Shown here: positions 2,961 through 19,234 of the stretch, in pieces
How the letters are laid out: each line of letters starts with the position of its first letter
Numbering within the stretch: position 1 is the stretch's first letter
DNA from: a virus
Lineage: Duplodnaviria; Heunggongvirae; Uroviricota; Caudoviricetes
DNA: 19,234 nucleotides
Direction: 5' to 3' (one strand)
Virus record (IMG/VR): IMGVR_UViG_2563366844_000003
Translations under genes and position numbers: made by a program
Notes under the pieces: generated by a model
What the model saw: only the letters and a program-made list of their open reading frames with translations
The model's database searches: none
Told to the model about the DNA's origin: nothing

Positions 2961-3794
2961 ATGAACATCGAAAAAAGCAGATTAATTTCTGAGGCCGCCC
3001 CTCATCTGAACGCCTCTCTGGGCACAATTAACGGTAATGAATTTGCCGCAATTGTCCCGGTTATTCCTGGTCATATCGGTGGGCGTGAAACCAATATTGT
3101 TAGCGCAAAAGCGTTACACAAAGCGTTGGGCGTGGGAAAAGACTTCTCTACATGGATCACTGATCGCATCTCTGAATATGACTTCACCATTGGGCACGAT
3201 TACTCAGTCCATAAAACAATTTCCCCAAATTTGGGGAAAAGCCCGAATGGCGCGGCTTACAGCAAGATTAAGCAGTCTGGCAGACCCGGCAAAGACTATC
3301 TGTTAAGTGTCGGAATGGCGAAAGAACTGGCAATGATCGAACGCAATGATCAGGGTCGCGCTATCCGTCGTTATTTCATCCAGTGCGAGGAAGAATTACA
3401 GCGTAGCGTGCCTGAAATCGCCGCCCGCTATCGTCGCCAGCTAAAAGCCCGTATCAGTGCCGCAAACAACTTTAAGCCAATGTGCGATGCGCTGAATATG
3501 GCCCGTGCCGAGATGGGTAAAACGACGCAGCAACACCACTACACAAACGAGAGCAATATGATTTCTCGTATCGTTTTTGGTGGGCTAACTGCTAAGCAGT
3601 GGGCGCGGATAAATGGCTATTCTGGCGAACCTCGCGACCATATGAACGCAGAACAGCTTGAGCACCTCTCATATCTCGAAAGCACCAATATCACGTTAAT
3701 TGATATGGGCATGGAATATGAGCAGCGCAAAGGAGAACTCACCCGCCTGTCGCAACGCTGGCTCGCCAAGCGTCTGGAGGCGGTCCATGTTTAA
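2961..3794 (+). CDS. Phage antirepressor, AntA-domain family
   Basis: 277 aa. N-terminal ALHKALGVGKDFSTWITDRISEYDF and the block MAKELAMIERNDQGRAIRRYFIQCEEEL match the conserved AntA antirepressor signature as I recall it. GGAG SD 7 nt upstream. Confidence 0.75.
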   Translation: MNIEKSRLISEAAPHLNASLGTINGNEFAAIVPVIPGHIGGRETNIVSAKALHKALGVGKDFSTWITDRISEYDFTIGHDYSVHKTISPNLGKSPNGAAYSKIKQSGRPGKDYLLSVGMAKELAMIERNDQGRAIRRYFIQCEEELQRSVPEIAARYRRQLKARISAANNFKPMCDALNMARAEMGKTTQQHHYTNESNMISRIVFGGLTAKQWARINGYSGEPRDHMNAEQLEHLSYLESTNITLIDMGMEYEQRKGELTRLSQRWLAKRLEAVHV

Positions 3795-3969
3795 GCCGAC
3801 AGGAACACCCCAACCTCAAAAACGCTACAAAGATGCCCACGGAGCACTCGTTACTGTCGAAAGCGTGTCTCACAACCGAGTGACGTTTTATCGCGACGGG
3901 TATCAATCGCCATGCGTACAACCGCTGGCACGTTTCATGAAGGAGTTTGCGGAGGTTAACAAATGCTAA
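3787..3969 (+). CDS. Small conserved prophage protein (DUF4222-like, tentative)
   Basis: 60-aa ORF starting at ATG 3787, which overlaps the antirepressor stop (ATGTTTAA). MFKPTGTP...RVTFYRDGY...PCVQPLARFMKEF resembles a small family common in enterobacterial prophages. The ORF track extends it upstream to 3700, inside the preceding gene. Confidence 0.45.
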   Translation: MFKPTGTPQPQKRYKDAHGALVTVESVSHNRVTFYRDGYQSPCVQPLARFMKEFAEVNKC

Positions 3970-5030
3970 CCGCCCAGAAGAAGATATTTTCACTGGCTGG
4001 TATGTCGCCAAAATCCAGCAATATGACAGCAAAGTCTGGCATTAATACAGCAGACACAAGCAAAGTTTATCATTTTCTGGTGGTAGGAGCGGATGCCTTA
4101 ACTATGTCAGAAATTACGGTCGATGGTGTTAGCGTTGAGAAGGTCAGCGGCTGCGCCAGAGAATTTCTGGTCGTAGATGGCTTTCTCTGCTCGCGTAGTG
4201 ACTCCACAAAAACCTTCGTCCACACGCGCGACGTTAACGAAATGAGCGCGATGTATTGTGCATCTGGTGCTTCCAATTCTGAGTTTTCGGAGTCCATAAA
4301 AAAGAGCTTGCCGTTATGCGGCAACACGGTTTATGGTTATAAGGCACCTCATAAAACGGGTGCCGGGATTGGCGTCCTGGTAAATCGAATGGCGACATAT
4401 GACGCGCCGAGCGTCTTTTTTTATGTCGTAGGTCTGACTCACCCATTTTTTGGGCGTTGGTGTATAATCCAGCGCCTTTGTCAATCAATGGTGGCTCAGG
4501 CAGGGGCTTCTTCGGAAGCGCCGGTATCCATTCGAGCCGGTTACGCCAACCCTGTCTGGGCTACCACCAGCGAAATTGGCGTTTCCGGTGGTAGCGTTAC
4601 ATGCTATCGAATGGAGGCTGCCACATGCTGGCTACTACCCCTACCCAAAAACCGCAATTTATCTGGATTATCGCCGCAGTTCGCCGCGATTGCCCGACAA
4701 TTACCGCCAAAATTCATCATATTGCTGCCGAGTCTGAACGCGATGCTCGCCGTTCTCTGGTGCGCGATCACGTCTGCTTTTTTGCTGGTCGTATCCGCAT
4801 GGAGGTGGCACATGATTAAAACCTACGATGTGCATATGGATCCCCTCGAACGCACAAGCCAGATCATCACACTGACAGAAGTGATTAACGACATTCTGGT
4901 GAGCAACTCTCCCTCACGAGACGAAAGACTGAAGGCGTTACTCGCGATATTGGATCTCGCCGTTCGTGACGTTCATTTCCTGCTGGAAGGTGGCGAAATG
5001 CCAGGAAAAACGGGGGCAACCAATGAATAA
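3963..5030 (+). CDS. Uncertain long ORF (355 aa); possibly composite, with a regulatory region and nested small ORFs
   Basis: Strong GGAGG SD 7 nt before ATG 3963 and no in-frame stop to 5030. The 4400-4810 portion contains a terminator-like hairpin plus T-run, a TATAAT box, three open frames and a low-complexity Cys/Trp-rich translation. Confidence 0.3.
4401..4422 (+). terminator. Putative intrinsic terminator (GACGC-gccga-GCGTC followed by T7)
   Basis: 5-bp GC stem, 5-nt loop, seven consecutive T. Lies inside the 3963 ORF, so it is functional only if that ORF is not translated through. Confidence 0.3.
4430..4470 (+). promoter_or_regulatory. Putative promoter with consensus -10 TATAAT (4463-4468) for the operon leading to the primase
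   Basis: Perfect TATAAT hexamer preceded by TG-rich sequence. The -35 is only a weak match (CTGACT region). Sits immediately after the terminator-like hairpin. Confidence 0.3.
4625..4819 (+). CDS. Small ORF (64 aa), first candidate gene of the primase operon
   Basis: GGAGG SD (4613-4617) 7 nt before ATG 4625. The SD-to-ATG 17-mer ATGGAGGCTGCCACATG is nearly duplicated at 4797-4814. Overlaps another frame, so low confidence. Confidence 0.25.
   Translation: MLATTPTQKPQFIWIIAAVRRDCPTITAKIHHIAAESERDARRSLVRDHVCFFAGRIRMEVAHD
4812..5030 (+). CDS. Small ORF (72 aa), C-terminal part of the 3963 frame with its own strong start
   Basis: GGAGG (4801-4805) 6 nt before ATG 4812. Stop overlaps the next start (ATGAATAA). 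Translation is protein-like. Confidence 0.4.
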   Translation: MIKTYDVHMDPLERTSQIITLTEVINDILVSNSPSRDERLKALLAILDLAVRDVHFLLEGGEMPGKTGATNE

Positions 5031-6300: not shown

Positions 6301-6642
6301 ATGATTACTAAAAATTTCCGACTGAATGCGCTGGCAAATAAGTATGCGTCGGCACTGTATAACCACATTACCTCCACCAGCGACGGGGACTATTTCATGG
6401 TTGATGCGGACGGCGAGGCCGTACGTGTGGAAATCGTCAATGGAGTAAAAGGCGTTCGCAGCCTGATCGATAGCTACACACTGGCAGCCATGAAAGTGTT
6501 CTACCCGCAGTGGGAAACCGTGGGGATCGAGCTTCTTGAGCGTTGCGTCAATAAGGACGGATTGACTGACGTCGGGCGTGAGATATGGCAAAGCATGGTT
6601 AATGACATGGGCGCAACTGTAGCGGGAGGTTCTCATGCGTGA
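6301..6642 (+). CDS. Hypothetical protein (113 aa)
   Basis: GAGG SD before ATG 6301; stop overlaps the next start. Confidence 0.6.
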   Translation: MITKNFRLNALANKYASALYNHITSTSDGDYFMVDADGEAVRVEIVNGVKGVRSLIDSYTLAAMKVFYPQWETVGIELLERCVNKDGLTDVGREIWQSMVNDMGATVAGGSHA

Positions 6643-7006
6643 AAATGCAGAAATGGCGCTTAGCTCCGCAATCGGAGAGCAGGTGGCAAAGATTGCTGGT
6701 GCTGTGTGGATTCATAACCTTCATTCTACTGGTGAAGAGAAAATGGCAATTCAGACGCCAGAGGGACGCACCATTACTACATCTCTGAAGCCGTCAGATG
6801 TTTGTGATCTGATTTGCGCATTCATGTACCCAGCAATGAGGACTGTCCACGGCGATCAGTGGAAACTTGCGACAACCGCTGAATTTGATATGTGGCTAAA
6901 CAATGATGGCATGCTGACTGATTACGGAATAACCAAGTGGCAGATGCTGGTTAGCCATATCGCAAACGCTATAGACCACGTGGGGTACGGTGATGCGAAA
7001 CATTGA
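6635..7006 (+). CDS. Hypothetical protein (123 aa)
   Basis: GGAGG SD before ATG 6635; 3' end overlaps the primase start. Confidence 0.6.
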   Translation: MRENAEMALSSAIGEQVAKIAGAVWIHNLHSTGEEKMAIQTPEGRTITTSLKPSDVCDLICAFMYPAMRTVHGDQWKLATTAEFDMWLNNDGMLTDYGITKWQMLVSHIANAIDHVGYGDAKH

Positions 7007-9749
7007 TCTTATCCGTCAGGTTATCAGTGCGTCTGAAAACAACTGGCCTCATGTGCTGGGCTGCCTGAACATAAATGTCCCTGACTCTCCGCGCCGTCAT
7101 GCTCCCTGCCCTGCATGTGGGGGCAAAGATCGATTCCGGTTCGATGACAACGGGCGCGGTAGCTTCATCTGTAATCAGTGCGGCGCTGGTGATGGGCTGG
7201 ATTTAATTAAACGCGTAAATAACTGCGACACAACAGAGGCGGCGCTTCTTGCCGCTGATGTTCTGGGTATTGATTACCGGACAACGGAAACACCAGAAGC
7301 CACCAGCCAGAAACGGGAACAACTGGAAACCAAGCGCCAGCGACGCGAACAGGAGCGCCTGAAAAGGGCAGAGAAGGACGAACAACAAAGACGGGATACG
7401 TTTTCCCGTCAGTTTGATGACATGCGCAGAAAGGCTGTAAACGGCAAATCTGATTATCTGGTTGCGAAAGGGGTAGGTGATTTTACATTCCCCGTGTTGC
7501 CCGATGGATCTCTGTTGCTGGCGCTGGTGGATAAATCCGGCGCAGTCACAGCAGCACAGACTATTACCTCACATGGTGAAAAAAGACTCCTGACAGGTTC
7601 AGCAAAGCGGGGGGCATATCACGCCATAAACGCACCAGAAACAACACAGAGCATCTTAATCGCAGAAGGGCTGGCAACGGCATTATCTGCCCATTTAATT
7701 CGCCCAGAGGCGCTTACAGTGGCGGCGATTGATGCCGGGAACCTGTTATATGTCGCCCAGGTACTGCGGGATAAATTTCCTTCAGCACAAATCATCATTG
7801 CTGCGGATAACGACCACAGCGAAGGAAGACAAAACACGGGGAGAAGAGCAGCAGAAAAAGCAGCTTTATCTGTTTCTGGATGGGTGGCATTACCCCCGAC
7901 AGATCACAAAGCAGACTGGAATGATTACCACCAAAAACACGGCATTAAATGCGCCACAGAAGCGTTCAATAAGTCAATGTACCAACCACAGGGTAATGGC
8001 GTGAAACAGGAGCCACAGACCATTGAGGGAAGCGATTTTAAGGTTATGGATACCGACCCACTGAAACCAAGAATAGAAAGCCGCGAGGATGGTATTTATT
8101 GGGTATCTCCGAGAGCTGACAGCCAGAGTGGAGAAATCATCAATAACGAAAGCTGGTTATGTTCTCCGTTAAGCGTTATCGGTACTGGCAGAGACGATAA
8201 AGACCAGTATCTCATTCTTCGCTGGCTGTCGTTTGGTTCTGAAACGCCGACAACCGCTGCCATTCCACTGGCTGATATTGGTGAACGTGAAGGATGGCGC
8301 ACACTTAAAGCTGGTGGGGTAACTGTCACGACCAAAAGCAGCCTCAGAGCAATACTGGCAGACTGGCTACAACGCAGTGGCTCTCGTGAATTGTGGCGTG
8401 TTGCTCATGCCACTGGCTGGCAATGCGGAGCGTACATCATGCCTGATGGGGAAATCATCGGAACACCTGAAAATCCTGTGCTGTTCAGCGGGAGAAGCTC
8501 AGCCGCAGCCGGATATACCGTCTCAGGGAGCGCGAAAAGCTGGCGTGATAACGTGGCGCGTCTGGCCTTTGGTAACTATTCAATGATGACCGGGATCGGC
8601 GCAGCACTGGCAGCGCCATTGATTGGGCTGGTGGGCGCTGACGGGTTCGGCATTCATTTCTATGAGCAGTCGAGCGCAGGTAAGACCACCACGGCAAACG
8701 TGGCGAGCAGCTTATACGGCAACCCTGATTTACTGCGGCTGACGTGGTACGGAACCGCGCTGGGGCTGGCAAATGAAGCTGCCGCCCACAATGACGGACT
8801 AATGCCGCTTGATGAAGTTGGTCAGGGCGCTGATCCTGTCAGTGTTTCACAGTCTGCCTATGCGTTATTTAACGGTGTAGGGAAACTGCAAGGCGCTAAA
8901 GATGGTGGAAACCGGGATCTAAAACGCTGGCGTACAGTGGCAATCAGCACCGGAGAAATGGATTTAGAAACATTTATCGCTACTTCCGGGCGAAAAACCA
9001 AAGCCGGGCAACTGGTGCGACTGCTGAATATTCCGTTGAGTAAAGCAGTACGCTTTCACGATTACCAGAACGGAAAACAGCACGCAGACGCACTGAAAGA
9101 CGCTTACCAGCATCACCACGGCGCAGCCGGGCGTGAGTGGATTAAATGGCTGGCAGACCACCAGCAACAGGCAATTAAAACTGTTCGTGACCGCGAAAGC
9201 AGATGGAGAAGTCTGATCCCATCCGATTATGGTGAGCAGGTTCACCGTGTAGCCGCGCGATTTGCCATTCTGGAGGCCGCATTGCTGTTAGGCGAGGTTG
9301 TAACAGGCTGGGATGCTCAGACATGCCGTGATGCGATACAGCACAGCTATAACGCATGGTTGCGCGAGTTCGGCACAGGTAACAAAGAACATCAGCAGAT
9401 TATTGAACAAACGGAGGCATTTCTTAATGCCTATGGGCTTAGCCGTTTTGCACCATTTCCATACAGCCCGGCAGATTTGCCCATCAAAGATTTAGCCGGA
9501 TACCGTCAGCGTGGAGAACATGACGAAAGCCCAATGATTTTCTACACATTCCCGGCCACATTTGAAAAGGAGATCGCATGTGGTTTCAACGCAAAACAGT
9601 TTGCTGAAGTGTTGAAAAAAGCCGGGATGCTAACCCCACCAAACAGCGGTCGTGGATACCAAAGAAAATCACCACGTATTCAGGGACGACAAATAAACGT
9701 TTATGTACTCAATTACCAGCCAGGAGATTACAACTCATCTGAAGAATGA
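6993..9749 (+). CDS. Replicative primase/helicase, P4-alpha-like (zinc-binding N-terminus, TOPRIM, P-loop NTPase)
   Basis: Zn-ribbon CPACGG...FICNQCG near the N-terminus. TOPRIM-like ILIAEGLATA and IIIAADNDHSEG (acidic E and DxD). P-loop-like SSAGKTTT. Start is probably ATG 6993; the track begins at the in-frame GTG 6990. Confidence 0.9.
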   Translation: MRNIDLIRQVISASENNWPHVLGCLNINVPDSPRRHAPCPACGGKDRFRFDDNGRGSFICNQCGAGDGLDLIKRVNNCDTTEAALLAADVLGIDYRTTETPEATSQKREQLETKRQRREQERLKRAEKDEQQRRDTFSRQFDDMRRKAVNGKSDYLVAKGVGDFTFPVLPDGSLLLALVDKSGAVTAAQTITSHGEKRLLTGSAKRGAYHAINAPETTQSILIAEGLATALSAHLIRPEALTVAAIDAGNLLYVAQVLRDKFPSAQIIIAADNDHSEGRQNTGRRAAEKAALSVSGWVALPPTDHKADWNDYHQKHGIKCATEAFNKSMYQPQGNGVKQEPQTIEGSDFKVMDTDPLKPRIESREDGIYWVSPRADSQSGEIINNESWLCSPLSVIGTGRDDKDQYLILRWLSFGSETPTTAAIPLADIGEREGWRTLKAGGVTVTTKSSLRAILADWLQRSGSRELWRVAHATGWQCGAYIMPDGEIIGTPENPVLFSGRSSAAAGYTVSGSAKSWRDNVARLAFGNYSMMTGIGAALAAPLIGLVGADGFGIHFYEQSSAGKTTTANVASSLYGNPDLLRLTWYGTALGLANEAAAHNDGLMPLDEVGQGADPVSVSQSAYALFNGVGKLQGAKDGGNRDLKRWRTVAISTGEMDLETFIATSGRKTKAGQLVRLLNIPLSKAVRFHDYQNGKQHADALKDAYQHHHGAAGREWIKWLADHQQQAIKTVRDRESRWRSLIPSDYGEQVHRVAARFAILEAALLLGEVVTGWDAQTCRDAIQHSYNAWLREFGTGNKEHQQIIEQTEAFLNAYGLSRFAPFPYSPADLPIKDLAGYRQRGEHDESPMIFYTFPATFEKEIACGFNAKQFAEVLKKAGMLTPPNSGRGYQRKSPRIQGRQINVYVLNYQPGDYNSSEE

Positions 9750-9772
9750 GCTTCTTCATGTGCGTAGAAAAG

Positions 9773-9887
9773 GTGTTGGTTCAGTTGGTTCAGTTGGTTC
9801 AATTTATAAATGGTATTGTTTTATAAGGATTTTATTCTTTTTATTGAACCAACACTGAACCAACAACACGGTATTTTGAACCAACAC
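9773..9887. repeat. Iteron block 1: three tandem GTTGGTTCA (9775-9801), an AT-rich spacer, then three inverted copies TGAACCAAC (9845-9853, 9856-9864, 9877-9885); putative replication origin
   Basis: Exact 9-mers counted directly. Classic iteron plus AT-rich architecture, 26 bp downstream of the primase stop. Confidence 0.7.
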
Positions 9888-9935
9888 AATGTGACTGAAT
9901 TGATGCGCACAACACCTGGCTGGCATCAGAGAGTG

Positions 9936-10205: not shown

Positions 10206-10239
10206 ATGCCACCAGCTACTGAGCGGTGGCATTTTTTTT
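10206..10239 (+). terminator. Rho-independent terminator closing the primase/origin transcription unit
   Basis: ATGCCACC...GGTGGCAT stem (8 bp, extendable with inner pairs) followed by eight consecutive T. Confidence 0.65.
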
Positions 10240-10249
10240 GTGCTATATG

Positions 10250-10320
10250 TTTCATATTTTGCAATTACGATGATGAATGTTGCGATTTGTGAAACTATAA
10301 TAACTGTTGTTTTATACAGT
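10250..10320 (+). promoter_or_regulatory. Putative promoter region for the cargo operon (TATAAT at 10296-10301)
   Basis: AT-rich tract with a consensus -10 hexamer and TTGCAA/TTGCGA -35-like elements at non-ideal spacing, between the terminator and the SD of the small ORF. Confidence 0.3.
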
Positions 10321-10334
10321 TCTAAGGGGGCGTT

Positions 10335-10496
10335 ATGGCTATTTCAGTAAAGCCGGTATTGATAAGTGAGAAGCAAATGGAAGCGATAAAGAAAATTCAG
10401 GAAGAGCAGCGTAAAAAATCAGGAATTGGAGTAGCGCCAACTCTGCATGAAATTGCACGAGGGTTAATAGATAAGGCGCTGGCAGGCTGTATGTGA
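10335..10496 (+). CDS. Small ORF (53 aa) absent from the ORF track; possible ribbon-helix-helix-like regulator
   Basis: Strong SD AAGGGGG 5-6 nt before ATG 10335. Translation MAISVKPVLISEKQMEAIKKIQEEQRKKSGIGVAPTLHEIARGLIDKALAGCM has a beta-strand then two-helix pattern compatible with an RHH fold (by eye only). Confidence 0.4.
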   Translation: MAISVKPVLISEKQMEAIKKIQEEQRKKSGIGVAPTLHEIARGLIDKALAGCM

Positions 10497-10512: not shown

Positions 10513-10974
10513 ATGGAACTAAAATTTATTGATAACCCTGTGCGATTACAGGCCTTTCTTAACGAGCCTGGCAATACCGAAAATATTGTTGAGCCGGGGC
10601 ACACGTACTACATCAAGCCTGATGCGGTATATCTCGGTATCTACGAAGGATTGGTGCTGGCTGGCGTTCATGAAGTGCGTAACTTCTGGCATAACATTGT
10701 TGAATGCCATGCGGTGTACGACCCCGGATTCCGTGGTGAATATGCACTGCAAGGGCATCGATTATTCTGCAAATGGCTTCTCAAAAACTCACCATTCCTT
10801 AACAGCATTACCATGGTTCCTGACACCACCAAATACGGACGGGCAATTATCCGTTTGCTTGGCGCTACCCGTGTTGGTCACCTTGATGATGCTTATATCA
10901 GATGTGGTAAACCCGTCGGCGTAACGCTTTATCAGTTAACTCGGCAACAATATAAGGAATTCAGCGAATGTTAA
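10513..10974 (+). CDS. Putative virion-associated protein, first gene of the ejection-protein-like operon (position analogous to P22 gp14)
   Basis: 153-aa intact ORF whose stop overlaps the next start. Assignment rests on operon position and size, not a recognised motif. Confidence 0.65.
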   Translation: MELKFIDNPVRLQAFLNEPGNTENIVEPGHTYYIKPDAVYLGIYEGLVLAGVHEVRNFWHNIVECHAVYDPGFRGEYALQGHRLFCKWLLKNSPFLNSITMVPDTTKYGRAIIRLLGATRVGHLDDAYIRCGKPVGVTLYQLTRQQYKEFSEC

Positions 10975-11645
10975 TTACCCATATAGCTCATAAATATCTC
11001 AATCGTGCCGTATACGAAAAAGGCGGTGATGGTGGTGCCTCTAAAGCTCAGGCGAAGGCCCAGCAGCAGGCAATTGATTTGCAGCGCGAGCAGTGGAATA
11101 CGGTGATGAATAATCTCAAGCCGTATGCAGAAGTCGGATTGCCTGCTTTACAACAACTACAAGGACTGATGACTCTGGAAGGGCAGAATAAAGCCGCGAA
11201 TGATTTCTTTGGTTCTGGTTTATATAAAACACAGGCAGATCAGGCCCGTTATCAGAACCTTGTCTCAGCAGAAGCTACCGGGGGGCTTGGCTCAACAGCT
11301 ACCAGTAACCAGTTATCTTCCATTGCGCCCATGCTTTATAACAATTGGCTCAGTGGGCAAATGCAAAATTATGGAAACCTGCTAAATGTCGGGATGAATG
11401 CGGCATCAGGGCAGGCAACAGCAGGGCAAAACTACGCCAATAATACCGGACAACTCTTGCAGGGGCTTGGCGCTATTCGTGCAGGTCAGGCGCAGCAGCC
11501 ATCCAGTCTTGCGCGTGGTATTGGTGGGGCGGCATCAGGCGCTTTAGCGGGTGCGCAACTTGGTTCCGTTGTTCCGGGTATAGGTAATGTCGCCGGGGCT
11601 ATTGGTGGTGGGCTTATTGGTCTTGTTGGGGGGCTTGGATTCTAA
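10968..11645 (+). CDS. Putative ejection/DNA-transfer protein (P22 gp7-like architecture; Gly-rich hydrophobic C-terminus)
   Basis: 225 aa. Gln/Ala-rich N-terminal half and a glycine-zipper-like tail GIGGAASGALAGAQLGSVVPGIGNVAGAIGGGLIGLVGGLGF. Stop overlaps the next start (TAATG). Confidence 0.7.
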   Translation: MLITHIAHKYLNRAVYEKGGDGGASKAQAKAQQQAIDLQREQWNTVMNNLKPYAEVGLPALQQLQGLMTLEGQNKAANDFFGSGLYKTQADQARYQNLVSAEATGGLGSTATSNQLSSIAPMLYNNWLSGQMQNYGNLLNVGMNAASGQATAGQNYANNTGQLLQGLGAIRAGQAQQPSSLARGIGGAASGALAGAQLGSVVPGIGNVAGAIGGGLIGLVGGLGF

Positions 11646-12964
11646 TGGCGACATGGCAACTTGGCGGGCTGCCTAGCATGGCACCGCAAAATGATAATGC
11701 TCCTCGTTCTTCCGTTCCTCAGCCTGTGCAGTATCAGCAGCAGCCAAACGTAGGTTTAATGGCGCTACAGGGGCTAAGAGGCGTTGCTGAGATTAATCAG
11801 CAGGCGCAAATTTCCCAGCAGCTAAAAGAATATCAGGCACGGTTGGGTAGTGCGGTAGCTAATAATGATCGTGTTGGAGTGCAGAAGTTAATGGCCCAGT
11901 ATCCCCAGTTTATGGCTGATTCTCAAAAACAGATGGGATTCATTGATGCTGAGCAAAATCGACAGACCGCTGACGCTGCCATGAATCTGCGTCTTGCGTC
12001 ACAAACTGGAGATCCACTGACCATGCAGAAGGCCATTCAGCAGGCAAATCCAGTATTACAGCGATTTGGTCTTCCTGCTGAAGAGGTTTATCAGTCTTGG
12101 CAGAATGACCCACAGGAATTCAACAGAATCACTGACCTCATCCACCTCCATGCTGATCCAAATAGTTACTTTAGTGTTCAAGAGAAGCAGCAAGGGCAGA
12201 GCATTGCACAGCAGAACGCAGATACATCTGCATATAATGCTCAGGTTAATGCGGAACAGGGTAATCGGCGTCTCGATATGGAGCAGTTCAAAGTCCTATC
12301 CGATAACCAACTACGCACGAGAGAAATGGTTCTGAAAGCACGACTTGGACGTGCTCAAAATGACATCGAGAGAGACAAGCTCAATGCTGAACTGAGCAAA
12401 GTACAGCAGGCGAAAGTGGAGAAGATGAACGATAAAATTAATACTGTTGCAGGTAACATCGACTCCTTGAACTCTGCGCTTGAAGTGGGTCATGAACTGG
12501 CGGGAATTGTAGGGAAACATCCTTCGGCCGTTACCCGCTCGCAGAACTATAACCCCCTGACGCTGGGGTTTGGATTCCTTCCTGATGTAGCAGAAGACAC
12601 ACGAAGCCTACGCGCCAAAGCTGATGAATACAACCTAAAGGTTATTCTGCCTAGCCTCAAAGGGACTTTTGGCTCTAACCCAACCGAAGGGGAAAGGGCT
12701 GCCCTTATGCAATCTCAAAATGGCATTAAGTCAGCAACCAGCAATGAGGCATTTTTGCGAGAGTTGAATAAAGCGCAGGACGTAATTATTCGAATGCAGA
12801 AACGACAGATTGCCGGGCTCGGTATTCCTGTAACCAAATCAAAGGACGAAGAAACTGATACCAAAATGCTGTTGCAGGATCCTTCACTGATTAAGGATTA
12901 TGTGACCGCACATGGCTATCTGCCGGAAAGTTACTATCAGGCAAAACTTAAGGGATGGCAATGA
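11645..12964 (+). CDS. Putative ejection protein (P22 gp20-like; Gln-rich coiled-coil)
   Basis: 439 aa, Gln-rich and predicted alpha-helical. Coupled start/stop with both neighbours. Confidence 0.7.
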   Translation: MATWQLGGLPSMAPQNDNAPRSSVPQPVQYQQQPNVGLMALQGLRGVAEINQQAQISQQLKEYQARLGSAVANNDRVGVQKLMAQYPQFMADSQKQMGFIDAEQNRQTADAAMNLRLASQTGDPLTMQKAIQQANPVLQRFGLPAEEVYQSWQNDPQEFNRITDLIHLHADPNSYFSVQEKQQGQSIAQQNADTSAYNAQVNAEQGNRRLDMEQFKVLSDNQLRTREMVLKARLGRAQNDIERDKLNAELSKVQQAKVEKMNDKINTVAGNIDSLNSALEVGHELAGIVGKHPSAVTRSQNYNPLTLGFGFLPDVAEDTRSLRAKADEYNLKVILPSLKGTFGSNPTEGERAALMQSQNGIKSATSNEAFLRELNKAQDVIIRMQKRQIAGLGIPVTKSKDEETDTKMLLQDPSLIKDYVTAHGYLPESYYQAKLKGWQ

Positions 12965-15681
12965 TGGCACAACTGACAGAAAAACAGAAAGCCTATTCCC
13001 GTCATCTCGATGAAAAATATGGTTTCCCATCAGGGACGATGGAAACATTAGTTGGCAATGAATCTAGTGGTAACGGAAGTGCCGAGTCACCGAAAGGAGC
13101 TAGAGGATTTGCTCAACTGATGCCCTCAGTAATGAGTGATGCTGGTTATCGTGGAACTGATCCGCGCTCACTGCCATTTGAAAAGCAAATGGATATCGCA
13201 GCAAACCATCTCAATAAAGGAATGAAGCGATTTGGTGATATTGGTATGGCATTGGCTGGGTATAATTCTGGCTATGCTCGTATTAATGCCGTCAGAAACG
13301 GTAAATCTACACTGCCAGATGAAACGGCTAATTACGTAAGTAAATTTGCAGATGCCGGAATAATCCCTGATGACAGTGAAATCTTGCAGTTTGCACAAAC
13401 CAGTCAACATCGCAATCTTCAGCAGCCTGACTACTCAGAGCTTGATAAAGAAATCTCTCAGGTGGGAGATATTTCTGCATGGGAAGCAAAACGTCAGCAA
13501 TTTAAGAACATAGAAGCAGGACTACCAACAGCCAGTTCATGGGAGCAGAAAAGAGCTCAGTTTCTCGCCGATGAAAATGCCGGGGAACCGCAGCAGCAAG
13601 TAGCCAAGTCTAACCTTAATCCTGAGATGGAATATCTTTCGCCAGGACTGAAAGCTGCGCCAGAGCAGATGGCCAGAGGGATTGCTAATATACCGTTTGA
13701 TGTAATGGACGCAGGCGTGGGGGTAGTCAATGCGGCGCAATCAGCCGGAGCATGGGCAGCTCAGAAGCTTGGTGTGGGTGATGGCACATACACGCCCATA
13801 TCACCTGTCTTTCGCCCAGTAGACCAACCTACAGATCCATACGCGCAGGCTGGTGAGCAGCTAGCACCTTACCTTATTACAGGATTAGGTGCAGGAAAGG
13901 CAGCTACCGCAGCTTCTTCCGTTGCCAACGCTCCACGTGCTGAACGTGCGGCCACAAAGGTGGCTAGTATGTTGGCAGAAAACCTGCCAGGTACATTGGT
14001 GAACGCCCAAAAGAACGGGCAGATCAGCCCAGAAGACCTAGCAAAAGAGACAGGTATTGGCCTAGCAGGATCGCTAGGAGCACGCGCTTTAATAAAGAGC
14101 GGACAGACAGCCAGTGACGTAATGCGAGATGTATTGCGGAGTAATACAAATCAATCAGGCCATGTGTTAGGGGCAGCAAATACTCTGGAAACCGCCAATG
14201 ATGTATCGAAAGCAGCGCGTTCTGCCGTAGGCCGAGAGCATATCGCATCGCAGGCATCAAACGTCAGAGATGATGTCGCTAAGGCGGCGAAAATCACTGG
14301 TATTAATATCAACACCCTGACGCCCGGAATGCGCTCAGGTAGTCGTGGAATTGCCCAAGCAGAAGGTGTTCTGGCATCAACTCCTGGGAATGTTCAGGAT
14401 GCTCACCTTACGGCCTTCAATGAAATATCCTCAAAGTTGAATAAGCAGTTGTCTGATTTCGGTGCTGAGTCTGGAAGCGCATCAGAAAAAAGCGCAGCAA
14501 TTAAAGAGCGCATCATCGCGAGCCTCAGTGATATGAAAACAGCAGAGAATATGGCATGGGCAGAACTGCGAAGCACGATGCCACGCGAAAGGATGAAAAT
14601 GAGTAATGGGATGGCTGTCGTCCAAGCAGAAAAAGCAGCCAATGTTCCACTCAGCCCGGAGATGAAACAGTTTCAGGCTGCCAACAACCAAGGTGGCGGC
14701 ATAACCTTCGACGGGATGAAGGCATGGCGTGCTAAGTTTGCTGATGCTGAACAAGCAAACACCCGGGCAGGTAAGGCCAATGCCGCCCGGATTGCCGGAG
14801 AAATGCGCAGAGCTATCACTGATGACATGCGCATCATGGCTGAAAAAGGAAACTTCCTCACAGAATGGCAGAAAGCTAACGATCTCTCTAAAAGTTACAT
14901 TATCGCCAAACAAAATGCCGAATCTGTTTTTGGTCGAGATCTCGCATCAGACGCTATGGTAAGAAAAGGTGCCGATACGCTTAAGGCATCCGCAAACACT
15001 GGAACGGGAGCTTTTCACCGCCTTATCTCCGCGCTGCCGGAAGCAGAACGCCAACCAGCAATAGCATCTATTCTTCAGCATGCTGTGGCGCAGGGAGAGA
15101 AGGGAGGAATCGGTGAAGAGTCTGGTATCCAGTATTTTGCCAAGCTCATGACCCAGCAGAATGTAAACGCCATCAGTCGTCATGCGCCAGATCTCGGTAG
15201 AATGATGAAAGAGTTCGGTGTACTCGCTAAAGCCAGCACCAGACCGCAGCGATACGTAGAGCGCACGGGAAGAACAACTGAGGCTCTCAAAACGCTCGAT
15301 TCAGGCCTTCCAAAGATCGTCGGTGTGATCATGAACGGAGTTCAACAGTCAGGTGCGATCGCTGGAGGCTTTGGCGGTGGTGTAATTGGTTCGATTAGTG
15401 GTTTGGTTGCTGGTGGCGCACTGAGAAATACTGTGGCTAAGATTGGGGCGACAAGAAGTGGTCGATATGCGATAGAGAAAGCCGTTCAGGAAGCTACAAA
15501 AGCAGTGCGCGCAGGGGCATCACCAGCAGCGATCGCCGCAGCAGAGAAACGATTTTCGACCAATAAAATTGCCATGAAAGCAATTCGTGATGCCGTTGGG
15601 GCTGAAGAATTCGTGAAACTGACAAGGGCCGGGATTGTAGCTACCCTCAGTGGCATGAAAGATGTTAGCGAATGGGAATAG
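12955..15681 (+). CDS. Large internal virion/ejection-type protein with N-terminal lytic transglycosylase (SLT) domain
   Basis: 908 aa. SLT motifs GNESSGNGSAESPKGARGFAQLMP (putative catalytic Glu at nt 13060-13062) and ALAGYNSGYARINAV. True start is probably ATG 12961 or 12964, which have better SD spacing from AAGGGA. Confidence 0.85.
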   Translation: MAMMAQLTEKQKAYSRHLDEKYGFPSGTMETLVGNESSGNGSAESPKGARGFAQLMPSVMSDAGYRGTDPRSLPFEKQMDIAANHLNKGMKRFGDIGMALAGYNSGYARINAVRNGKSTLPDETANYVSKFADAGIIPDDSEILQFAQTSQHRNLQQPDYSELDKEISQVGDISAWEAKRQQFKNIEAGLPTASSWEQKRAQFLADENAGEPQQQVAKSNLNPEMEYLSPGLKAAPEQMARGIANIPFDVMDAGVGVVNAAQSAGAWAAQKLGVGDGTYTPISPVFRPVDQPTDPYAQAGEQLAPYLITGLGAGKAATAASSVANAPRAERAATKVASMLAENLPGTLVNAQKNGQISPEDLAKETGIGLAGSLGARALIKSGQTASDVMRDVLRSNTNQSGHVLGAANTLETANDVSKAARSAVGREHIASQASNVRDDVAKAAKITGININTLTPGMRSGSRGIAQAEGVLASTPGNVQDAHLTAFNEISSKLNKQLSDFGAESGSASEKSAAIKERIIASLSDMKTAENMAWAELRSTMPRERMKMSNGMAVVQAEKAANVPLSPEMKQFQAANNQGGGITFDGMKAWRAKFADAEQANTRAGKANAARIAGEMRRAITDDMRIMAEKGNFLTEWQKANDLSKSYIIAKQNAESVFGRDLASDAMVRKGADTLKASANTGTGAFHRLISALPEAERQPAIASILQHAVAQGEKGGIGEESGIQYFAKLMTQQNVNAISRHAPDLGRMMKEFGVLAKASTRPQRYVERTGRTTEALKTLDSGLPKIVGVIMNGVQQSGAIAGGFGGGVIGSISGLVAGGALRNTVAKIGATRSGRYAIEKAVQEATKAVRAGASPAAIAAAEKRFSTNKIAMKAIRDAVGAEEFVKLTRAGIVATLSGMKDVSEWE

Positions 15682-15831: not shown

Positions 15832-16530
15832 ATGATTAAAAATCTTCTTTTAATATTATCCCTGTCATTATTGGCTGGATGCGTACAAAAACCGTTAGTA
15901 ACGGTCAATGCTTTATCCTCCGGGCAATCTGTCGGTAAGAAGTTCTTGATCATCCCCGCAAGCCAAGAACTTTGGAACACCAAACAGATTGAATACACTC
16001 AAATAGCTACGGTAGTAGCCGCCAGTTTATCAAGCCAAGGATATACACAAGTTAAAGATGAAAAATTGGCTGACCAGGTAATTCTCTTGAACTTTTTGAG
16101 AAGCGGGGCCATTTCAAATACTCGTAATGTAACCATCCCAATATACGGGCAAACTGGTGTGAGCTCAGCAACAACGTACGGAAACTCGAACACCACGTTC
16201 AATAGTTATGGTGGTGGCTACGGTACGGCTAATACCACTGGAACGGCAACAACAGTTTATACGCCTACTTATGGAATTACTGGCGCGTATAACACAACTG
16301 TGACGGACACGTTCTACGGCGCAGGGGTGATACTCCAGTCGTTTGATGCCAAGGCTTATCTCAATAATAGGCAGATTAATATGTTATGGAAAGTTGGTAG
16401 CTCAGTCGTCTCGCAACAGTCTGATGGAATTGCTGATTACAAAGGGTTGGCGAGAATAGCCGCTAGCTATGCCGGGAAAAATACAGAAGGTGATATAACT
16501 TTTAATGTTGACCCTAAAGCACCAAATTAA
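15832..16530 (+). CDS. Lipoprotein with Thr/Gly/Tyr-rich low-complexity core
   Basis: Signal peptide plus lipobox LLAGC. Central T/G/Y/N-rich tract (about aa 110-160). AGGTGAG SD. AT-richer than the upstream operon. Confidence 0.8.
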   Translation: MIKNLLLILSLSLLAGCVQKPLVTVNALSSGQSVGKKFLIIPASQELWNTKQIEYTQIATVVAASLSSQGYTQVKDEKLADQVILLNFLRSGAISNTRNVTIPIYGQTGVSSATTYGNSNTTFNSYGGGYGTANTTGTATTVYTPTYGITGAYNTTVTDTFYGAGVILQSFDAKAYLNNRQINMLWKVGSSVVSQQSDGIADYKGLARIAASYAGKNTEGDITFNVDPKAPN

Positions 16531-16956: not shown

Positions 16957-17055
16957 TAAATCGCGTTACATGACCTCTCATGTTGTGCTGGTGGTTATCA
17001 CGACGTTCTGAATCTGGCCTTTGCCTGGTATTTTGCGACAAGTACGCGCGCGTAG
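16752..17055. repeat. Direct repeats GACAAGTACGCGCGCG (16752-16767 and 17040-17055) flanking a 24-bp perfect palindrome CAGTTGCAAAA-AG-TTTTGCAACTG (16775-16798)
   Basis: Exact 16-mer occurs twice 288 bp apart. A third TACGCGCGCG occurs at 19012-19021. Confidence 0.6.
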
Positions 17056-17600
17056 CATCGAAATAATCGGATGGCGTATGCTGCTGGTAATATGAAGACC
17101 GATAGCATTAACCGAAAGGAGAAAGACTTCTCGATAACGGCAAGATCGCGGCAAGGGGGCTGAATTGCGAGGCGAGATTAAGCAACTGTCTTGAACGTAA
17201 AAATCATGGAGCAACATGATGGTACGATTCATTCCATTCTTCGTTCTTTCTGAGCATTGCGTTCAGGCTTAGTCAAAATTAGTGTTGCGAGCGGACCTAT
17301 TAGTAATTGTTAGTGCGATGCGCCTGTTATGGATTGTTATGGTTGTGGCAGGCCTGATTAATATCCAGTATGACCACCAGCTATGAGAAGCCACCTCAGT
17401 GGTTCGCAGTTGCAGGTTTGCACTCAGGTTCGCAGGGTTTTGGCTACTTTCACGTGCGAACCTGCAGAATTGCAAAGGACAACTAAGTCCTCTGGCCAAC
17501 TCCCGGTTTATGAGCGACACAGTCCGCCTGGCGCATCGTTTTCGTCGAGTGCGCCCATCAGCTTGTCCATGGACTATCCACCACTCGATATTAAAGCTAA

Positions 17601-17786
17601 TCATTGGTTGCCAGCCCGCGAATCAAGTTTATTCTGGATCCAAGCTTCAACCTCCTCAAGCGACCATCTAGCTGATCTACCAATTTTAACTGGCTGTGGA
17701 AACGTGCCCGTCTTAACCCATGAGTAGATTGCCGTTTTCTTGAAGCCCGTTCTGAGCATGACTTCGCTTAATTTGATAAGGCGCAT
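17601..17786 (-). CDS. alpA: Second AlpA-family transcriptional regulator, opposite strand
   Basis: 61 aa. MRLIKLSEVMLRTGFKKTAIYSWVKTGTFPQPVKIGRSARWSLEEVEAWI is a textbook AlpA sequence. GGAG SD on the minus strand upstream. Confidence 0.85.
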   Translation of the reverse strand: MRLIKLSEVMLRTGFKKTAIYSWVKTGTFPQPVKIGRSARWSLEEVEAWIQNKLDSRAGNQ

Positions 17787-17835
17787 AGAGGCTCCTCTGC
17801 TTTAGATTAAGCATAGTGACAATCTGGCTTTGGGC

Positions 17836-17870
17836 GGTATCCAAAAGCGAGGTATCCATGTTGGTATCCA
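17836..17870. repeat. Three direct GGTATCCA repeats (17836-17843, 17851-17858, 17863-17870) in the divergent region upstream of minus-strand alpA
   Basis: Exact 8-mers spaced 15 and 12 bp apart, start to start. Confidence 0.5.
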
Positions 17871-17984
17871 CCAAAACGCTGTTTACCAAAAAAGTTACCA
17901 CCGGAACAGGACATTTTGAGCTGTAACTTAACACATAGCATATGGAGTTCACGTATAGACTTCACGCACAACGGCTCCGGCCAG

Positions 17985-18013
17985 TGAAGAATCACCCTGG
18001 CTGGCAATATAAT
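17985..18013 (+). promoter_or_regulatory. Putative promoter (-10 TATAAT at 18008-18013) for the small + strand ORF
   Basis: Consensus -10 hexamer with a weak -35 (TGAAGA) at 17-bp spacing. Confidence 0.3.
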
Positions 18014-18038
18014 GCCGATCACCATCAGAGGGGAATCC

Positions 18039-18215
18039 ATGACACCACGAGAAATCGAGCTGCTGACCATTGCCAAGCTGGAGCATGACGGCCACCAGCT
18101 CAGCCCGGCAGAACTGCGGGAATTAAGGCGCCAGCTGGCAGAGGGCCCTGTAATAGCCAGGCGGTACCGCGAAATGATGACCAGCGCCGCTCCGTGCGCG
18201 GTGAGCAGCACCTAA
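18039..18215 (+). CDS. Small hypothetical protein (58 aa)
   Basis: GAGGGG SD 5 nt before ATG 18039. The track's start at 18012 overlaps the -10 box and lacks an SD. Confidence 0.45.
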   Translation: MTPREIELLTIAKLEHDGHQLSPAELRELRRQLAEGPVIARRYREMMTSAAPCAVSST

Positions 18216-18276: not shown

Positions 18277-18401
18277 GTGTTGGTTCACGGCCTCTTTTTG
18301 TTGGTTCAAAAATGGGGGGTGTTGGTTCACTTTTTGCGAATAATCCTTTTAAAAACAATACTCTTTACAAATTGAACCAACTGAACCAACTGAACCAACA
18401 C
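18277..18401. repeat. Iteron block 2: three spaced GTTGGTTCA (18279-18287, 18300-18308, 18321-18329), an AT-rich spacer, then three tandem TGAACCAAC (18373-18399); inverted copy of block 1
   Basis: Same 9-mer as block 1, with the tandem and spaced arrays swapped. The reverse complement of the spacer aligns with the block-1 spacer (shared ATTTRTAAA...GTATTGTTTT...AGGATT...ATTC). Confidence 0.7.
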
Positions 18402-18435
18402 CTTTTTGCTTATCTATATAGTCTGAGAGGCAGAA

Positions 18436-18723
18436 ATGATGAGGGACAGGAAAGCTGAAGAGCTGGAGTCAAAAGGGCTATGCCGGAGAGCTGCCGCACG
18501 ATGGGCAGAAGTCATGACGCTGGCAGATGGCGATAAAGAACGTGAACATGCAGCAAACAGACGCTCTGAATGTATCCGTAGGGCGGCACGCCCACCAGCA
18601 ACTACAGACAGATTCGGAGATTTAAGACAGGCAGTTAAGCGAACTCATTCGGCTCTTGGTATGGATGAGGAAGCGAGAGGGTACTTCAGGCGTTATCGCG
18701 ATAAAGATTGCCAGAGACAGTAA
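18436..18723 (+). CDS. PerC-family transcriptional regulator (tentative)
   Basis: 95 aa. N-terminus KAEELESKGLCRRAAARWAEVM resembles the PerC motif (AEKLEAKGLWRRAA.RW.EV) as I recall it. GAGAGG SD. Confidence 0.6.
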   Translation: MMRDRKAEELESKGLCRRAAARWAEVMTLADGDKEREHAANRRSECIRRAARPPATTDRFGDLRQAVKRTHSALGMDEEARGYFRRYRDKDCQRQ

Positions 18724-19106
18724 TGCTCTCTCTGTTTTGGCAAATTACCCCTCACTTTGAAGGGATCGGAGCTATAAAAATGGTGTTATCCGGCTTCCTG
18801 CATTGCAGGTTTTCGAAAAAATCAATGGGTTAGGTCATCGTGCAAATTTGCACTCTGCCAGCCAACGCAATTTCTCGTTGGCGAAAATATCAGGTATTTA
18901 CTGAACGAACGGTCTACCAGTCTATTCAGTTACCAGTTGCACATGGCTGTTTCATGTGAGAACGGAGGTTTTTTCGGACATCACTATTGGGTACAGCAAT
19001 TTCACGAGCAATACGCGCGCGCAGGACAACAAGCCTGAACATGATTACACACCTCGATCGTGAGGGATGTAGACAATGGCTTCTGACCAAAGCACCCAAA
19101 AAAACC

Positions 19107-19128
19107 GTGTACATAAGGGTGTACATAA
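19107..19128. repeat. Direct repeat GTGTACATAA x2 (19107-19116, 19119-19128) with palindromic TGTACA cores
   Basis: Two exact 10-mers separated by GG. Candidate regulator binding site near the window end. Confidence 0.35.
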
Positions 19129-19234
19129 TCAAAAACCGCATTATAAAGAAACCAGCCACAATGAGGCATTAAAGCCAACACTCTACAAACAGATTCAATC
19201 GAGTAAGCGGCATCGCATTGTAGGCCATTGTTAA

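Follow-up and report, generated by a model that had tools for sequence, protein, structure and literature searches.

EcCIMP1-like satellite islands share a complete P22-type ejection module as part of their conserved core

The stretch of DNA analysed here, referred to as the window, comprises the 19,234 nucleotides (nt) of IMG/VR virus record IMGVR_UViG_2563366844_000003 and is a nearly complete island of 19.3 kb, bounded by attachment (att) repeats, at the yicC-dinD site of Escherichia coli. All four proteins encoded by its operon at 10513-15681 are homologues of the P22-type proteins gp14, gp7, gp20 and gp16, and this ejection module is under purifying selection and is a conserved core feature of islands related to EcCIMP1, a phage-inducible chromosomal island (PICI). 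The type of element is already known (the EcCIMP1 family was published in 2025) and is not a new kind; what is new is the recognition of the conserved late module of the family as a complete, selected and island-specific ejectosome with interchangeable gp20/gp16 alleles. We propose, with moderate confidence, that the ejection proteins of the island would be loaded into helper capsids and would set DNA delivery by the particles carrying them, a plausible payoff being escape from exclusion in P22-like lysogens.

Results

The ejection operon

The four genes are open reading frames (ORFs) of the + strand, free of frameshifts and internal stops, and their coordinates agree exactly with an earlier note on this DNA, which had described four co-directional, overlapping and intact genes at this place. 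The note had also likened them to the gp14-gp7-gp20-gp16 module of P22-like phages, a relation now borne out by profile matches and by gene order. The gp14 homologue (10513-10974, 153 amino acids (aa)) matches Pfam DUF2824 (2.4e-61) and PHROG 651 (7.3e-66); the homologue of the ejection protein gp7 (10968-11645, 225 aa) matches Pfam PF25688, P22_gp7 (1.9e-72); that of the ejection protein gp20 (11645-12964, 439 aa) matches Inj_translocase over residues 34-196 (3.7e-22), PHROG 2534 over residues 1-384 and also PHROG 917; and that of gp16 (12955-15681, 908 aa) matches PHROG 770 over residues 189-864 (1.8e-120), the family PF26808, Phage_P22_gp16, being assigned to its close relatives. The N-terminus of the gp16 homologue is an SLT lytic-transglycosylase domain (Pfam SLT, residues 17-119, 1.1e-12), in which inspection of the sequence finds the motifs ES (E36-S37), AQLMP and GYNSG retained. 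The three overlaps between successive genes measure 7 nt, 1 nt (TAATG) and 10 nt. In near-identical copies the NCBI annotation places the start of gp16 at an ATGA overlap, equivalent to window position 12961 and a protein of 906 aa, and this is probably the start used here as well. The order 14-7-20-16, with all genes in the same direction, is that of the P22 annotation. A PDB sequence search with the four ejection proteins returned no match.

Boundaries and closest relatives of the island

A region of E. coli CV839-06 (locus L001) matches the window at 98.4% identity, and there the element forms one insertion between the core genes yicC and dinD. An imperfect 22-nt direct repeat, TGTACATAnnGGTGTACATAAT, stands at both ends of the insertion, 19,325 bp apart in the CV839-06 genome. 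The attR copy, TGTACATAAGGGTGTACATAAT, occupies window positions 19108-19129 on the + strand (31247-31268 in L001), and attL lies 58-79 nt 5' of the integrase gene, just beyond the edge of the window (11922-11943 in L001). The same pair of repeats occurs in the E. coli island L004, and no copy of the att repeat was found inside the island.

Between positions 2507 and 18516 the window is 98.3% identical, over 16,066 aligned bases, to EcCIMP1, a 19,963-bp PICI of E. coli MP1 (Pick, Stadel and Raivio, ISME J 2025; PMC11773190). The two elements share the antirepressor, the Ash gene, the primase, a 53-aa ORF, gp14-gp7-gp20-gp16, a 232-aa ORF and alpA_1 (97-100% aa identity), but differ in the integrase (28% aa identity) with the alpA end and in the PerC end (52% aa identity), and EcCIMP1 integrates at tRNA-Thr whereas the element of the window uses the yicC-dinD site with its own repeat. 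Judged by its sequence, the window is an EcCIMP1-family PICI with a swapped integration module. Of the features by which PICIs are recognised, it has a terminal integrase with att repeats, alpA beside int, and a primase and origin of its own. EcCIMP1 excises and circularises, as one unit, only in the presence of the P22-like Lederbergvirus Kapi1 or upon its induction; the excision of EcCIMP1 requires its own integrase and alpA, the island is specifically transduced by Kapi1, and its alpA_1 can support excision of Kapi1 in place of Kapi1 xis (PMC11773190). Its authors identified no phage-like structural genes, and the genes of the module were presented as 'DNA transfer-like' or DUF2824-like packaging candidates, the ejection module as such not being recognised (PMC11773190). 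The earlier note knew of no description of a satellite carrying ejection proteins of its own; element and DUF2824-like genes had in fact been published in 2025, and what stands of the claim is that they were not identified there as an ejection module.

Absence of other virion genes

According to profile scans and tblastn, the ejection proteins are the sole virion-related genes of the window, which is without capsid, terminase, tail or lysis genes. The terminase subunits, portal, scaffold, coat, gp4, gp10, gp26 and tailspike of Kapi1 had no tblastn match in the window, nor in the islands L001, L002, L004-L008 and L011; in six P22-like prophage loci included in the same scan, all these virion genes surround gp14-7-20-16. 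This agrees with the backbone of int, alpA, primase and iterons without capsid, portal, terminase or tail genes that had been described at the outset. Sid, Psu, Delta, Epsilon, TerS, Rpp, capsid and scaffold-like proteins were absent from the 20 proteins scanned against Pfam and/or PHROGs, a set to which the DUF4222 ORF (3787-3969), the alpA_1 ORF and other minus-strand ORFs in 16978-18211 do not belong. Nothing convincing was found in the way of a P22 pac-like site or of sequence shared with the Kapi1 terS region, the best pac match having 6/22 mismatches.

These negative results bear on the possibility that the proteins redirect helper packaging or head assembly to island DNA. Such a role would suit the label 'head morphogenesis' that gp14 carries in the P22 annotation, but sits poorly with P22 mutants in genes 7, 16 and 20, which still yield DNA-filled particles. 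The suggestion was made by Pick et al., and the position of the module 3' of the primase is that of packaging genes in other Gram-negative PICIs (PMC11773190). Against it, all three of the large proteins of the module belong to the P22 gp7, gp20 and gp16 families, which published accounts describe as passing into the cell with the DNA and building the conduit for its entry, and none of the packaging proteins or sites named above was found. We regard a packaging or morphogenetic function as very improbable.

Distribution and selection

Gene neighbourhoods were inspected after a gp14 search of species-representative genomes and a gp20 search of 5.8 billion proteins. All sampled contexts in which gp20 is at least 62% identical to that of the window are islands: E. 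coli (99%), Leclercia (88%), Citrobacter (84%), Salmonella (82%), Pectobacterium (73%), a metagenome (71%), Serratia (69%), Buttiauxella (66%) and a decayed copy in a sequencing-run contig (62%). P22-like phages appear only at 51% or below: a phage or prophage in a metagenome (L028, 51%), two prophages of Serratia (46% and 45%), a phage or prophage in a further metagenome (43%) and a prophage of Providencia (38%), with one more metagenomic island at 49%. The island contexts consist of AlpA, Ash or antirepressor and DUF927 primase, followed by the small ORF, then the ejection genes and lastly PerC; virion genes beyond the ejection set are absent. In islands of at least eight genera the intact module immediately follows the replication gene, intact operons being present in Escherichia, Leclercia, Buttiauxella, Salmonella, Citrobacter, Pectobacterium, Serratia and metagenomes. 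In rough neighbour-joining trees, in which the mis-assigned gene chains of L005 and L012 were disregarded, island gp7 (7/8 sequences) and type-A gp20 form clades of their own. Between islands gp20 is 66-88% identical and the primase 49-73%, and the ejection proteins are usually better conserved than the primase. The ratio of nonsynonymous to synonymous substitution rates (dN/dS) between the E. coli and Leclercia islands is 0.066 for gp14, 0.072 for gp7, 0.065 for gp20 and 0.082 for gp16, at dS of 1.0-2.0. The term 'cargo', used for the operon in the earlier note, understates what is a conserved core module directly following the replication gene.

Some copies of the module have decayed (L006, L024 and the truncated gp16 of L005), as could be expected of non-functional debris, that is, of a P22-like prophage fragment captured beside or within an integrative element. 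However, dN/dS values of about 0.07 and the occurrence of intact operons at different att sites in eight or more genera argue otherwise, as do the position of the module between the two iteron clusters of the island and the behaviour of EcCIMP1, which excises and circularises, module included, as one 19,963-bp unit. The alternative of a truncated neighbouring prophage was likewise tested and is refuted, since copies of the att repeat are confined to the two ends of the island. The operon and the int-alpA-primase backbone are found together in many genera and at two separate att sites. The selection and distribution data effectively refute the debris explanation and uphold the view, put forward in the note, that this is a selected functional operon.

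Comparison with P22-like phages

The P22-like phages P22, Sf6, HK620, CUS-3, Kapi1 and Dewey/Huey have the same four protein families in the same gene order as the island, but in these phages the module sits with the needle gene gp26 upstream and the tailspike gene downstream, and the island module has neither flank. Identity to Kapi1 drops along the operon, from 83% for gp14 (Kapi1_055) and 57% for gp7 (Kapi1_056) to 26% for gp20 and 24% for gp16. Among 50,697 phage records, the closest full-length relatives of gp16 are those of Dewey and Huey (46.5%), both with an SLT domain, and CUS-3, epsilon34 and HK620 match the gp16 part of the protein at 48-52% identity; gp20 reaches at most 28% full-length identity to any record, and a megablast search with the operon matched only about 370 nt of gp14, at about 90%. 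Fusions of SLT to gp16 thus also occur in true phages, namely Dewey, Huey, and Serratia and metagenomic prophages.

Allelic variation among E. coli islands

A query extending from the 3' end of the primase gene through the lipoprotein gene that follows gp16 matched 968 of 5,426 complete E. coli genomes. The full block is present in 71 genomes; the remaining class sizes are estimates from evenly spaced sampling of the match list, by which the shared sequence stops after the first ~160 nt of gp20 in about 160 genomes, the match ends just 5' of gp14 in about 130, and about 100 have the promoter and small-ORF region only. By the same kind of sampling, an estimated 9% or so of complete E. coli genomes have such islands.

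The variants have different ejection alleles, and at least four gp20/gp16 allele pairs were found on one backbone. L004 combines gp14-gp7 with a 473-aa gp20 and a 701-aa gp16, the latter without BLASTP similarity to the window gp16 and 67% identical to those of phages N7 and HZ41. L005 is without gp14 and gp7 and has a 478-aa gp20 with a truncated gp16, and in the decayed module of L006, gp14 is a pseudogene and gp7 and gp20 are lost. L027, at the yicC-dinD site and also without gp14 and gp7, encodes a 447-aa gp20 that is 75% identical to that of Kapi1 overall and ~95% identical over the C-terminal 260 aa, and a 705-aa gp16 with ~93% identity to Kapi1 in the first 180 aa and ~28% thereafter. 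Such mosaic alleles point to ongoing exchange with helper-type phages. Islands that are without gp14 and gp7 (L005, L022 and L027) keep gp20 and gp16 together, and the E. coli variants as a whole indicate that these two genes always travel as a pair. In L027, a DUF5906 (P4-alpha-like) replication protein (6315-8666) takes the place of the DUF927 primase in an otherwise near-identical island, which suggests that the replication module is swappable too.

Other features of the island

The window begins with a tyrosine integrase gene (1-1260, +; Pfam Arm-DNA-bind_3, Phage_int_M and Phage_integrase), whose target is the yicC-dinD intergenic site. The int-alpA RNA (Rfam RF02996; 1269-1335, +), scoring 60.6 bits against a gathering score of 35.8, is placed between int and the next gene. 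There follow, on the + strand, an AlpA-family regulator (2314-2517; Pfam Phage_AlpA, 2.2e-08), an AntA/AntB-type antirepressor (2961-3794; Pfam AntA, 1.3e-21) and an Ash-family ORF region (3963-5030, 355 aa; Pfam Phage_ASH). Within the latter lie the RNAs isrK (4344-4421; Rfam, 67.1 bits) and C4 antisense (4484-4571; Rfam, 79.5 bits), which together constitute an RNA immunity region of the P1/P4 type; because these RNA genes are inside the Ash ORF, the 355-aa frame is possibly over-called. In the EcCIMP1 annotation the equivalent region is a pseudogene with an Icd-like gene. The primase/helicase (6990-9749, +) has a Zn-ribbon, Toprim_3 and DUF927 and matches PHROG 1139 (2.2e-177). Directly 3' of its gene is an iteron cluster of GTTGGTTCA units (9768-9889), a putative origin of replication (ori), and a second, inverted and crr-like cluster of the same units is found at 18277-18406 (55 nt, 95% complementary). 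The two inverted clusters are 8.4 kb apart and enclose the ejection module, the lipoprotein gene and alpA_1 (17601-17759, -), which encodes a second AlpA/Xis-like helix-turn-helix protein (WP_049066248.1, the same accession as in EcCIMP1).

Between the replication unit and the ejection operon there is a terminator-like hairpin with a T-run (10215-10238, +), and 5' of the operon a TATAAT sequence (10296-10301), both of them putative consensus matches. The first gene of the operon is a 53-aa ORF (10335-10496, +; N-terminus MAISVKPVLISEKQMEAIKKIQEEQRKK), which is kept 5' of the module in every island variant, including those without gp14 and gp7. It has no family match in Pfam or PHROGs and, judged by eye, resembles a small regulator of the ribbon-helix-helix type.

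At the far end, a PerC-family regulator is encoded at 18436-18723 (+; Pfam PerC, 8.5e-31). Just 3' of it, window positions 18775-18799 match exactly, over 25 nt, positions 13227-13251 of Kapi1 (L003), within the antirepressor gene Kapi1_032 (blastn-short E = 5.7e-07), a match that may reflect a common regulatory site or be fortuitous. Outside the window, the chromosome flanking the island in CV839-06 has a gene for a 'reverse transcriptase family protein' between slmA and pyrE (L001 8142-9101); this is possibly a defence gene of the retron type and seems to have no connection with the island.

Genes that follow the module

A predicted lipoprotein of 232 aa, with a signal peptide and an LAGC lipobox (MIKNLLLILSLSLLAGC), is encoded 3' of gp16 at 15832-16530 (+), near the site that sieA holds in P22. 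In Salmonella, Citrobacter and metagenomic islands, too, the gene directly follows type-A gp16 (87-93% aa identity). The protein has no family match in Pfam, PHROGs, NCBIfam or PADLOC, the last two giving nothing informative. The ORF after gene 16 was considered as a SieA and rejected, having neither tblastn similarity to P22 SieA nor the motif FnRYPnEAnnFNK. More generally, SieA was absent by tblastn and motif scan from the window and the islands scanned, types B and C having been sought by motif only.

Other islands have different genes in this place. A 129-aa protein with about four hydrophobic segments is encoded immediately after the other-type gp16 in L004 (17190-17579, -) and L005 (16073-16462, -); this protein of variants B/C shares the position and orientation of P22 sieA and has no SieA similarity or motif. 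The slot is taken by a 91-92-aa protein with a single transmembrane segment in Serratia-type islands and by a 142-aa lipoprotein in L024, and Abi-family (Abi_2) genes lie between the module and PerC in L005 (17296-18273) and L022 (16471-17433). This suggests that the slot 3' of the ejection module is a variable position for defence or other cargo genes.

The 232-aa lipoprotein is a candidate exclusion factor and could be the source of the superinfection immunity of EcCIMP1. A rival reading of the module is that the ejection proteins, the lipoprotein or both act against P22-like phages. Interference of this kind could operate through misincorporation, lowering the infectivity of helper virions, or through a block of the incoming ejectosome, that is, superinfection exclusion. 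EcCIMP1 does give lysogens added superinfection immunity to Kapi1, none of the known defence systems was identified in EcCIMP1 (PMC11773190), and PADLOC was negative for the window. Non-cognate mixtures of gp16 and gp20 give non-infectious P22 particles (PMC10461980), and either the lipoprotein gene or, in variants B/C, that of the protein with four hydrophobic segments stands just 3' of gene 16, at the site of P22 sieA. On the other hand, EcCIMP1 is published not to lower Kapi1 titres after induction or to change the infection of non-lysogens, the ejection proteins carry no signals for export and could act only from within virions, and no SieA homologue or motif was found in any island scanned. 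Of the two functions offered in the earlier note, the equipping of helper capsids and the poisoning of helper virions, the second, in a strong form and for Kapi1, is thus disfavoured by the published titres. A complete cognate set that includes the assembly factor gp14 also exceeds what a poison would need. Interference or defence is, in our opinion, an unlikely function for the module.

Discussion

For the timing of expression of the module, its incorporation into virions and the benefit that it brings, we infer the following course. When a P22-like helper turns lytic, AlpA would switch the island on, and the island would excise and replicate, steps that have been demonstrated for EcCIMP1 alone. 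The ejection operon would be transcribed as a separate unit 3' of the primase, and its products would be co-assembled into the procapsids encoded by the helper. Particles with island DNA, and possibly those with helper DNA too, would form their trans-envelope channel from the cognate gp20/gp16 pair of the island, which would bring its own peptidoglycan-cutting domain. As a benefit, DNA entry would be freed from the gp20/gp16 allele of the helper, a determinant of sensitivity to the SieA-type exclusion exerted by P22-like prophages, and the satellite could enter cells, lysogens included, in which the ejectosome of the helper performs poorly.

Several published properties of the P22 system make the incorporation of island proteins into virions plausible. 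Complete foreign sets of ejection proteins, only 22-26% identical, assemble and function in P22 virions (Leavitt et al., PMC10461980). Within such sets gp7 can be exchanged, whereas gp16 has to be paired with its cognate gp20 (PMC10461980), a requirement matched by the islands that lack gp14 and gp7 but retain gp20 and gp16 jointly. Yu et al. report that the channel made of gp7*, gp20 and gp16 is templated by gp10, the tail hub (PMC13622523). The combination observed here, of helper-like gp14 and gp7 with a gp20/gp16 pair that is highly divergent but kept as a unit and includes a peptidoglycan hydrolase domain, fits the incorporation model. As regards the benefit, published SieA-escape mutations lie towards the C-termini of both gp16 and gp20, and ejection proteins of the HK620 type escape in part (PMC10461980). 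The four or more gp20/gp16 allele pairs on one E. coli backbone, one of them mosaic with Kapi1, speak for the same benefit.

A number of observations weigh against loading into helper capsids as the function of the module. Kapi1 transduces EcCIMP1 at only ~4.8e3 particles per ml, and its titres are unaltered by the island (PMC11773190), which implies either that the module is not obviously needed or that Kapi1 is not the cognate helper; a Kapi1-like prophage was, moreover, present in only 2/21 of the published EcCIMP1 strains. The co-divergence of module and primase is weak and not significant (Spearman 0.64, p = 0.12, n = 7), suggesting that modules are shuffled among islands, and the decayed modules of L006, L005 (truncated gp16) and L024 (split gp16) indicate that loss is tolerated in some lineages. 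Finally, an advantage through evasion of SieA is something that we purely infer, and two very different SieA types exclude most types of ejection protein (Leavitt et al., PMC10461980).

The frequent presence of the island without an intact Kapi1-like prophage would also be compatible with a form of insurance, in which its ejection proteins let it exploit P22-like prophages that are defective or incompatible, their own ejection genes being damaged. This would parallel the published idea that alpA_1, which replaces Kapi1 xis, backs up a missing helper excisionase, and P22 virions deficient in gp16 can be complemented in trans (PMC13622523). Yet no defective helper without ejection genes was identified here, and insurance leaves both the diversity of gp20/gp16 alleles and the island-specific clade unexplained. 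It also overlaps with the loading of helper capsids proposed above, both requiring incorporation into virions. We consider complementation of defective helpers, taken as the explanation of the module, quite unlikely.

Loading of helper capsids with island ejection proteins may have a wider meaning. With a confidence that falls somewhat short of even, we suggest that the EcCIMP1-like PICIs constitute a widespread satellite clade of Enterobacterales defined by an ejectosome of its own, which would be loaded into P22-like helper capsids so that the satellite controls delivery. This ejectosome would consist of a cognate gp20/gp16 pair, with or without gp14 and gp7, plus an envelope protein, and SieA bypass would be one example of its use. 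If true, the entry step would join the list of helper functions that satellites manipulate, and an arms race with exclusion systems and satellites would offer a rationale for the extreme diversity of gp20 and gp16 in P22-like phages. Three or four genes of the published and tractable EcCIMP1/Kapi1 system, so far 'hypothetical' or 'packaging' genes, would be reinterpreted, and the idea is directly testable in that system. PerC-type virulence regulators and genes for defence are also found on such islands.

The satellites known so far act on gene expression of the helper, on the size of its capsid, on packaging specificity or on tail attachment, and to our knowledge piracy at the stage of DNA entry has not been described as a category for any of them; in the literature searched, no description of satellite-encoded ejection proteins as such was found. 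The earlier note had called the element 'P4-like', which is imprecise. P4-like satellites resemble the window in int, alpA, a primase/helicase, an ori/crr-like pair of iteron clusters and C4-type RNA immunity, but this is no more than a resemblance. Homologues of Sid, Psu, Delta or Epsilon are absent from the 20 window proteins scanned, and the primase is of the DUF927 type. The helper of P4-like satellites is a P2-like myovirus, whereas the proven helper of the near-identical EcCIMP1, to whose family the window belongs, is a P22-like podovirus (PMC11773190). Outside the satellites, the internal virion protein gp16 of T7 shares with the window gp16 an N-terminal SLT domain with a catalytic Glu-Ser motif, but the rest of the window protein is P22-gp16-like and not T7-gp16-like. 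The Staphylococcus aureus pathogenicity islands (SaPIs), with their capsid-size proteins, and the capsid-forming PICIs (cf-PICIs), with capsids of their own, are likewise satellites encoding homologues of helper structural proteins. Those proteins act on capsid assembly or packaging, whereas the homologues encoded in the window belong to the step of DNA delivery.

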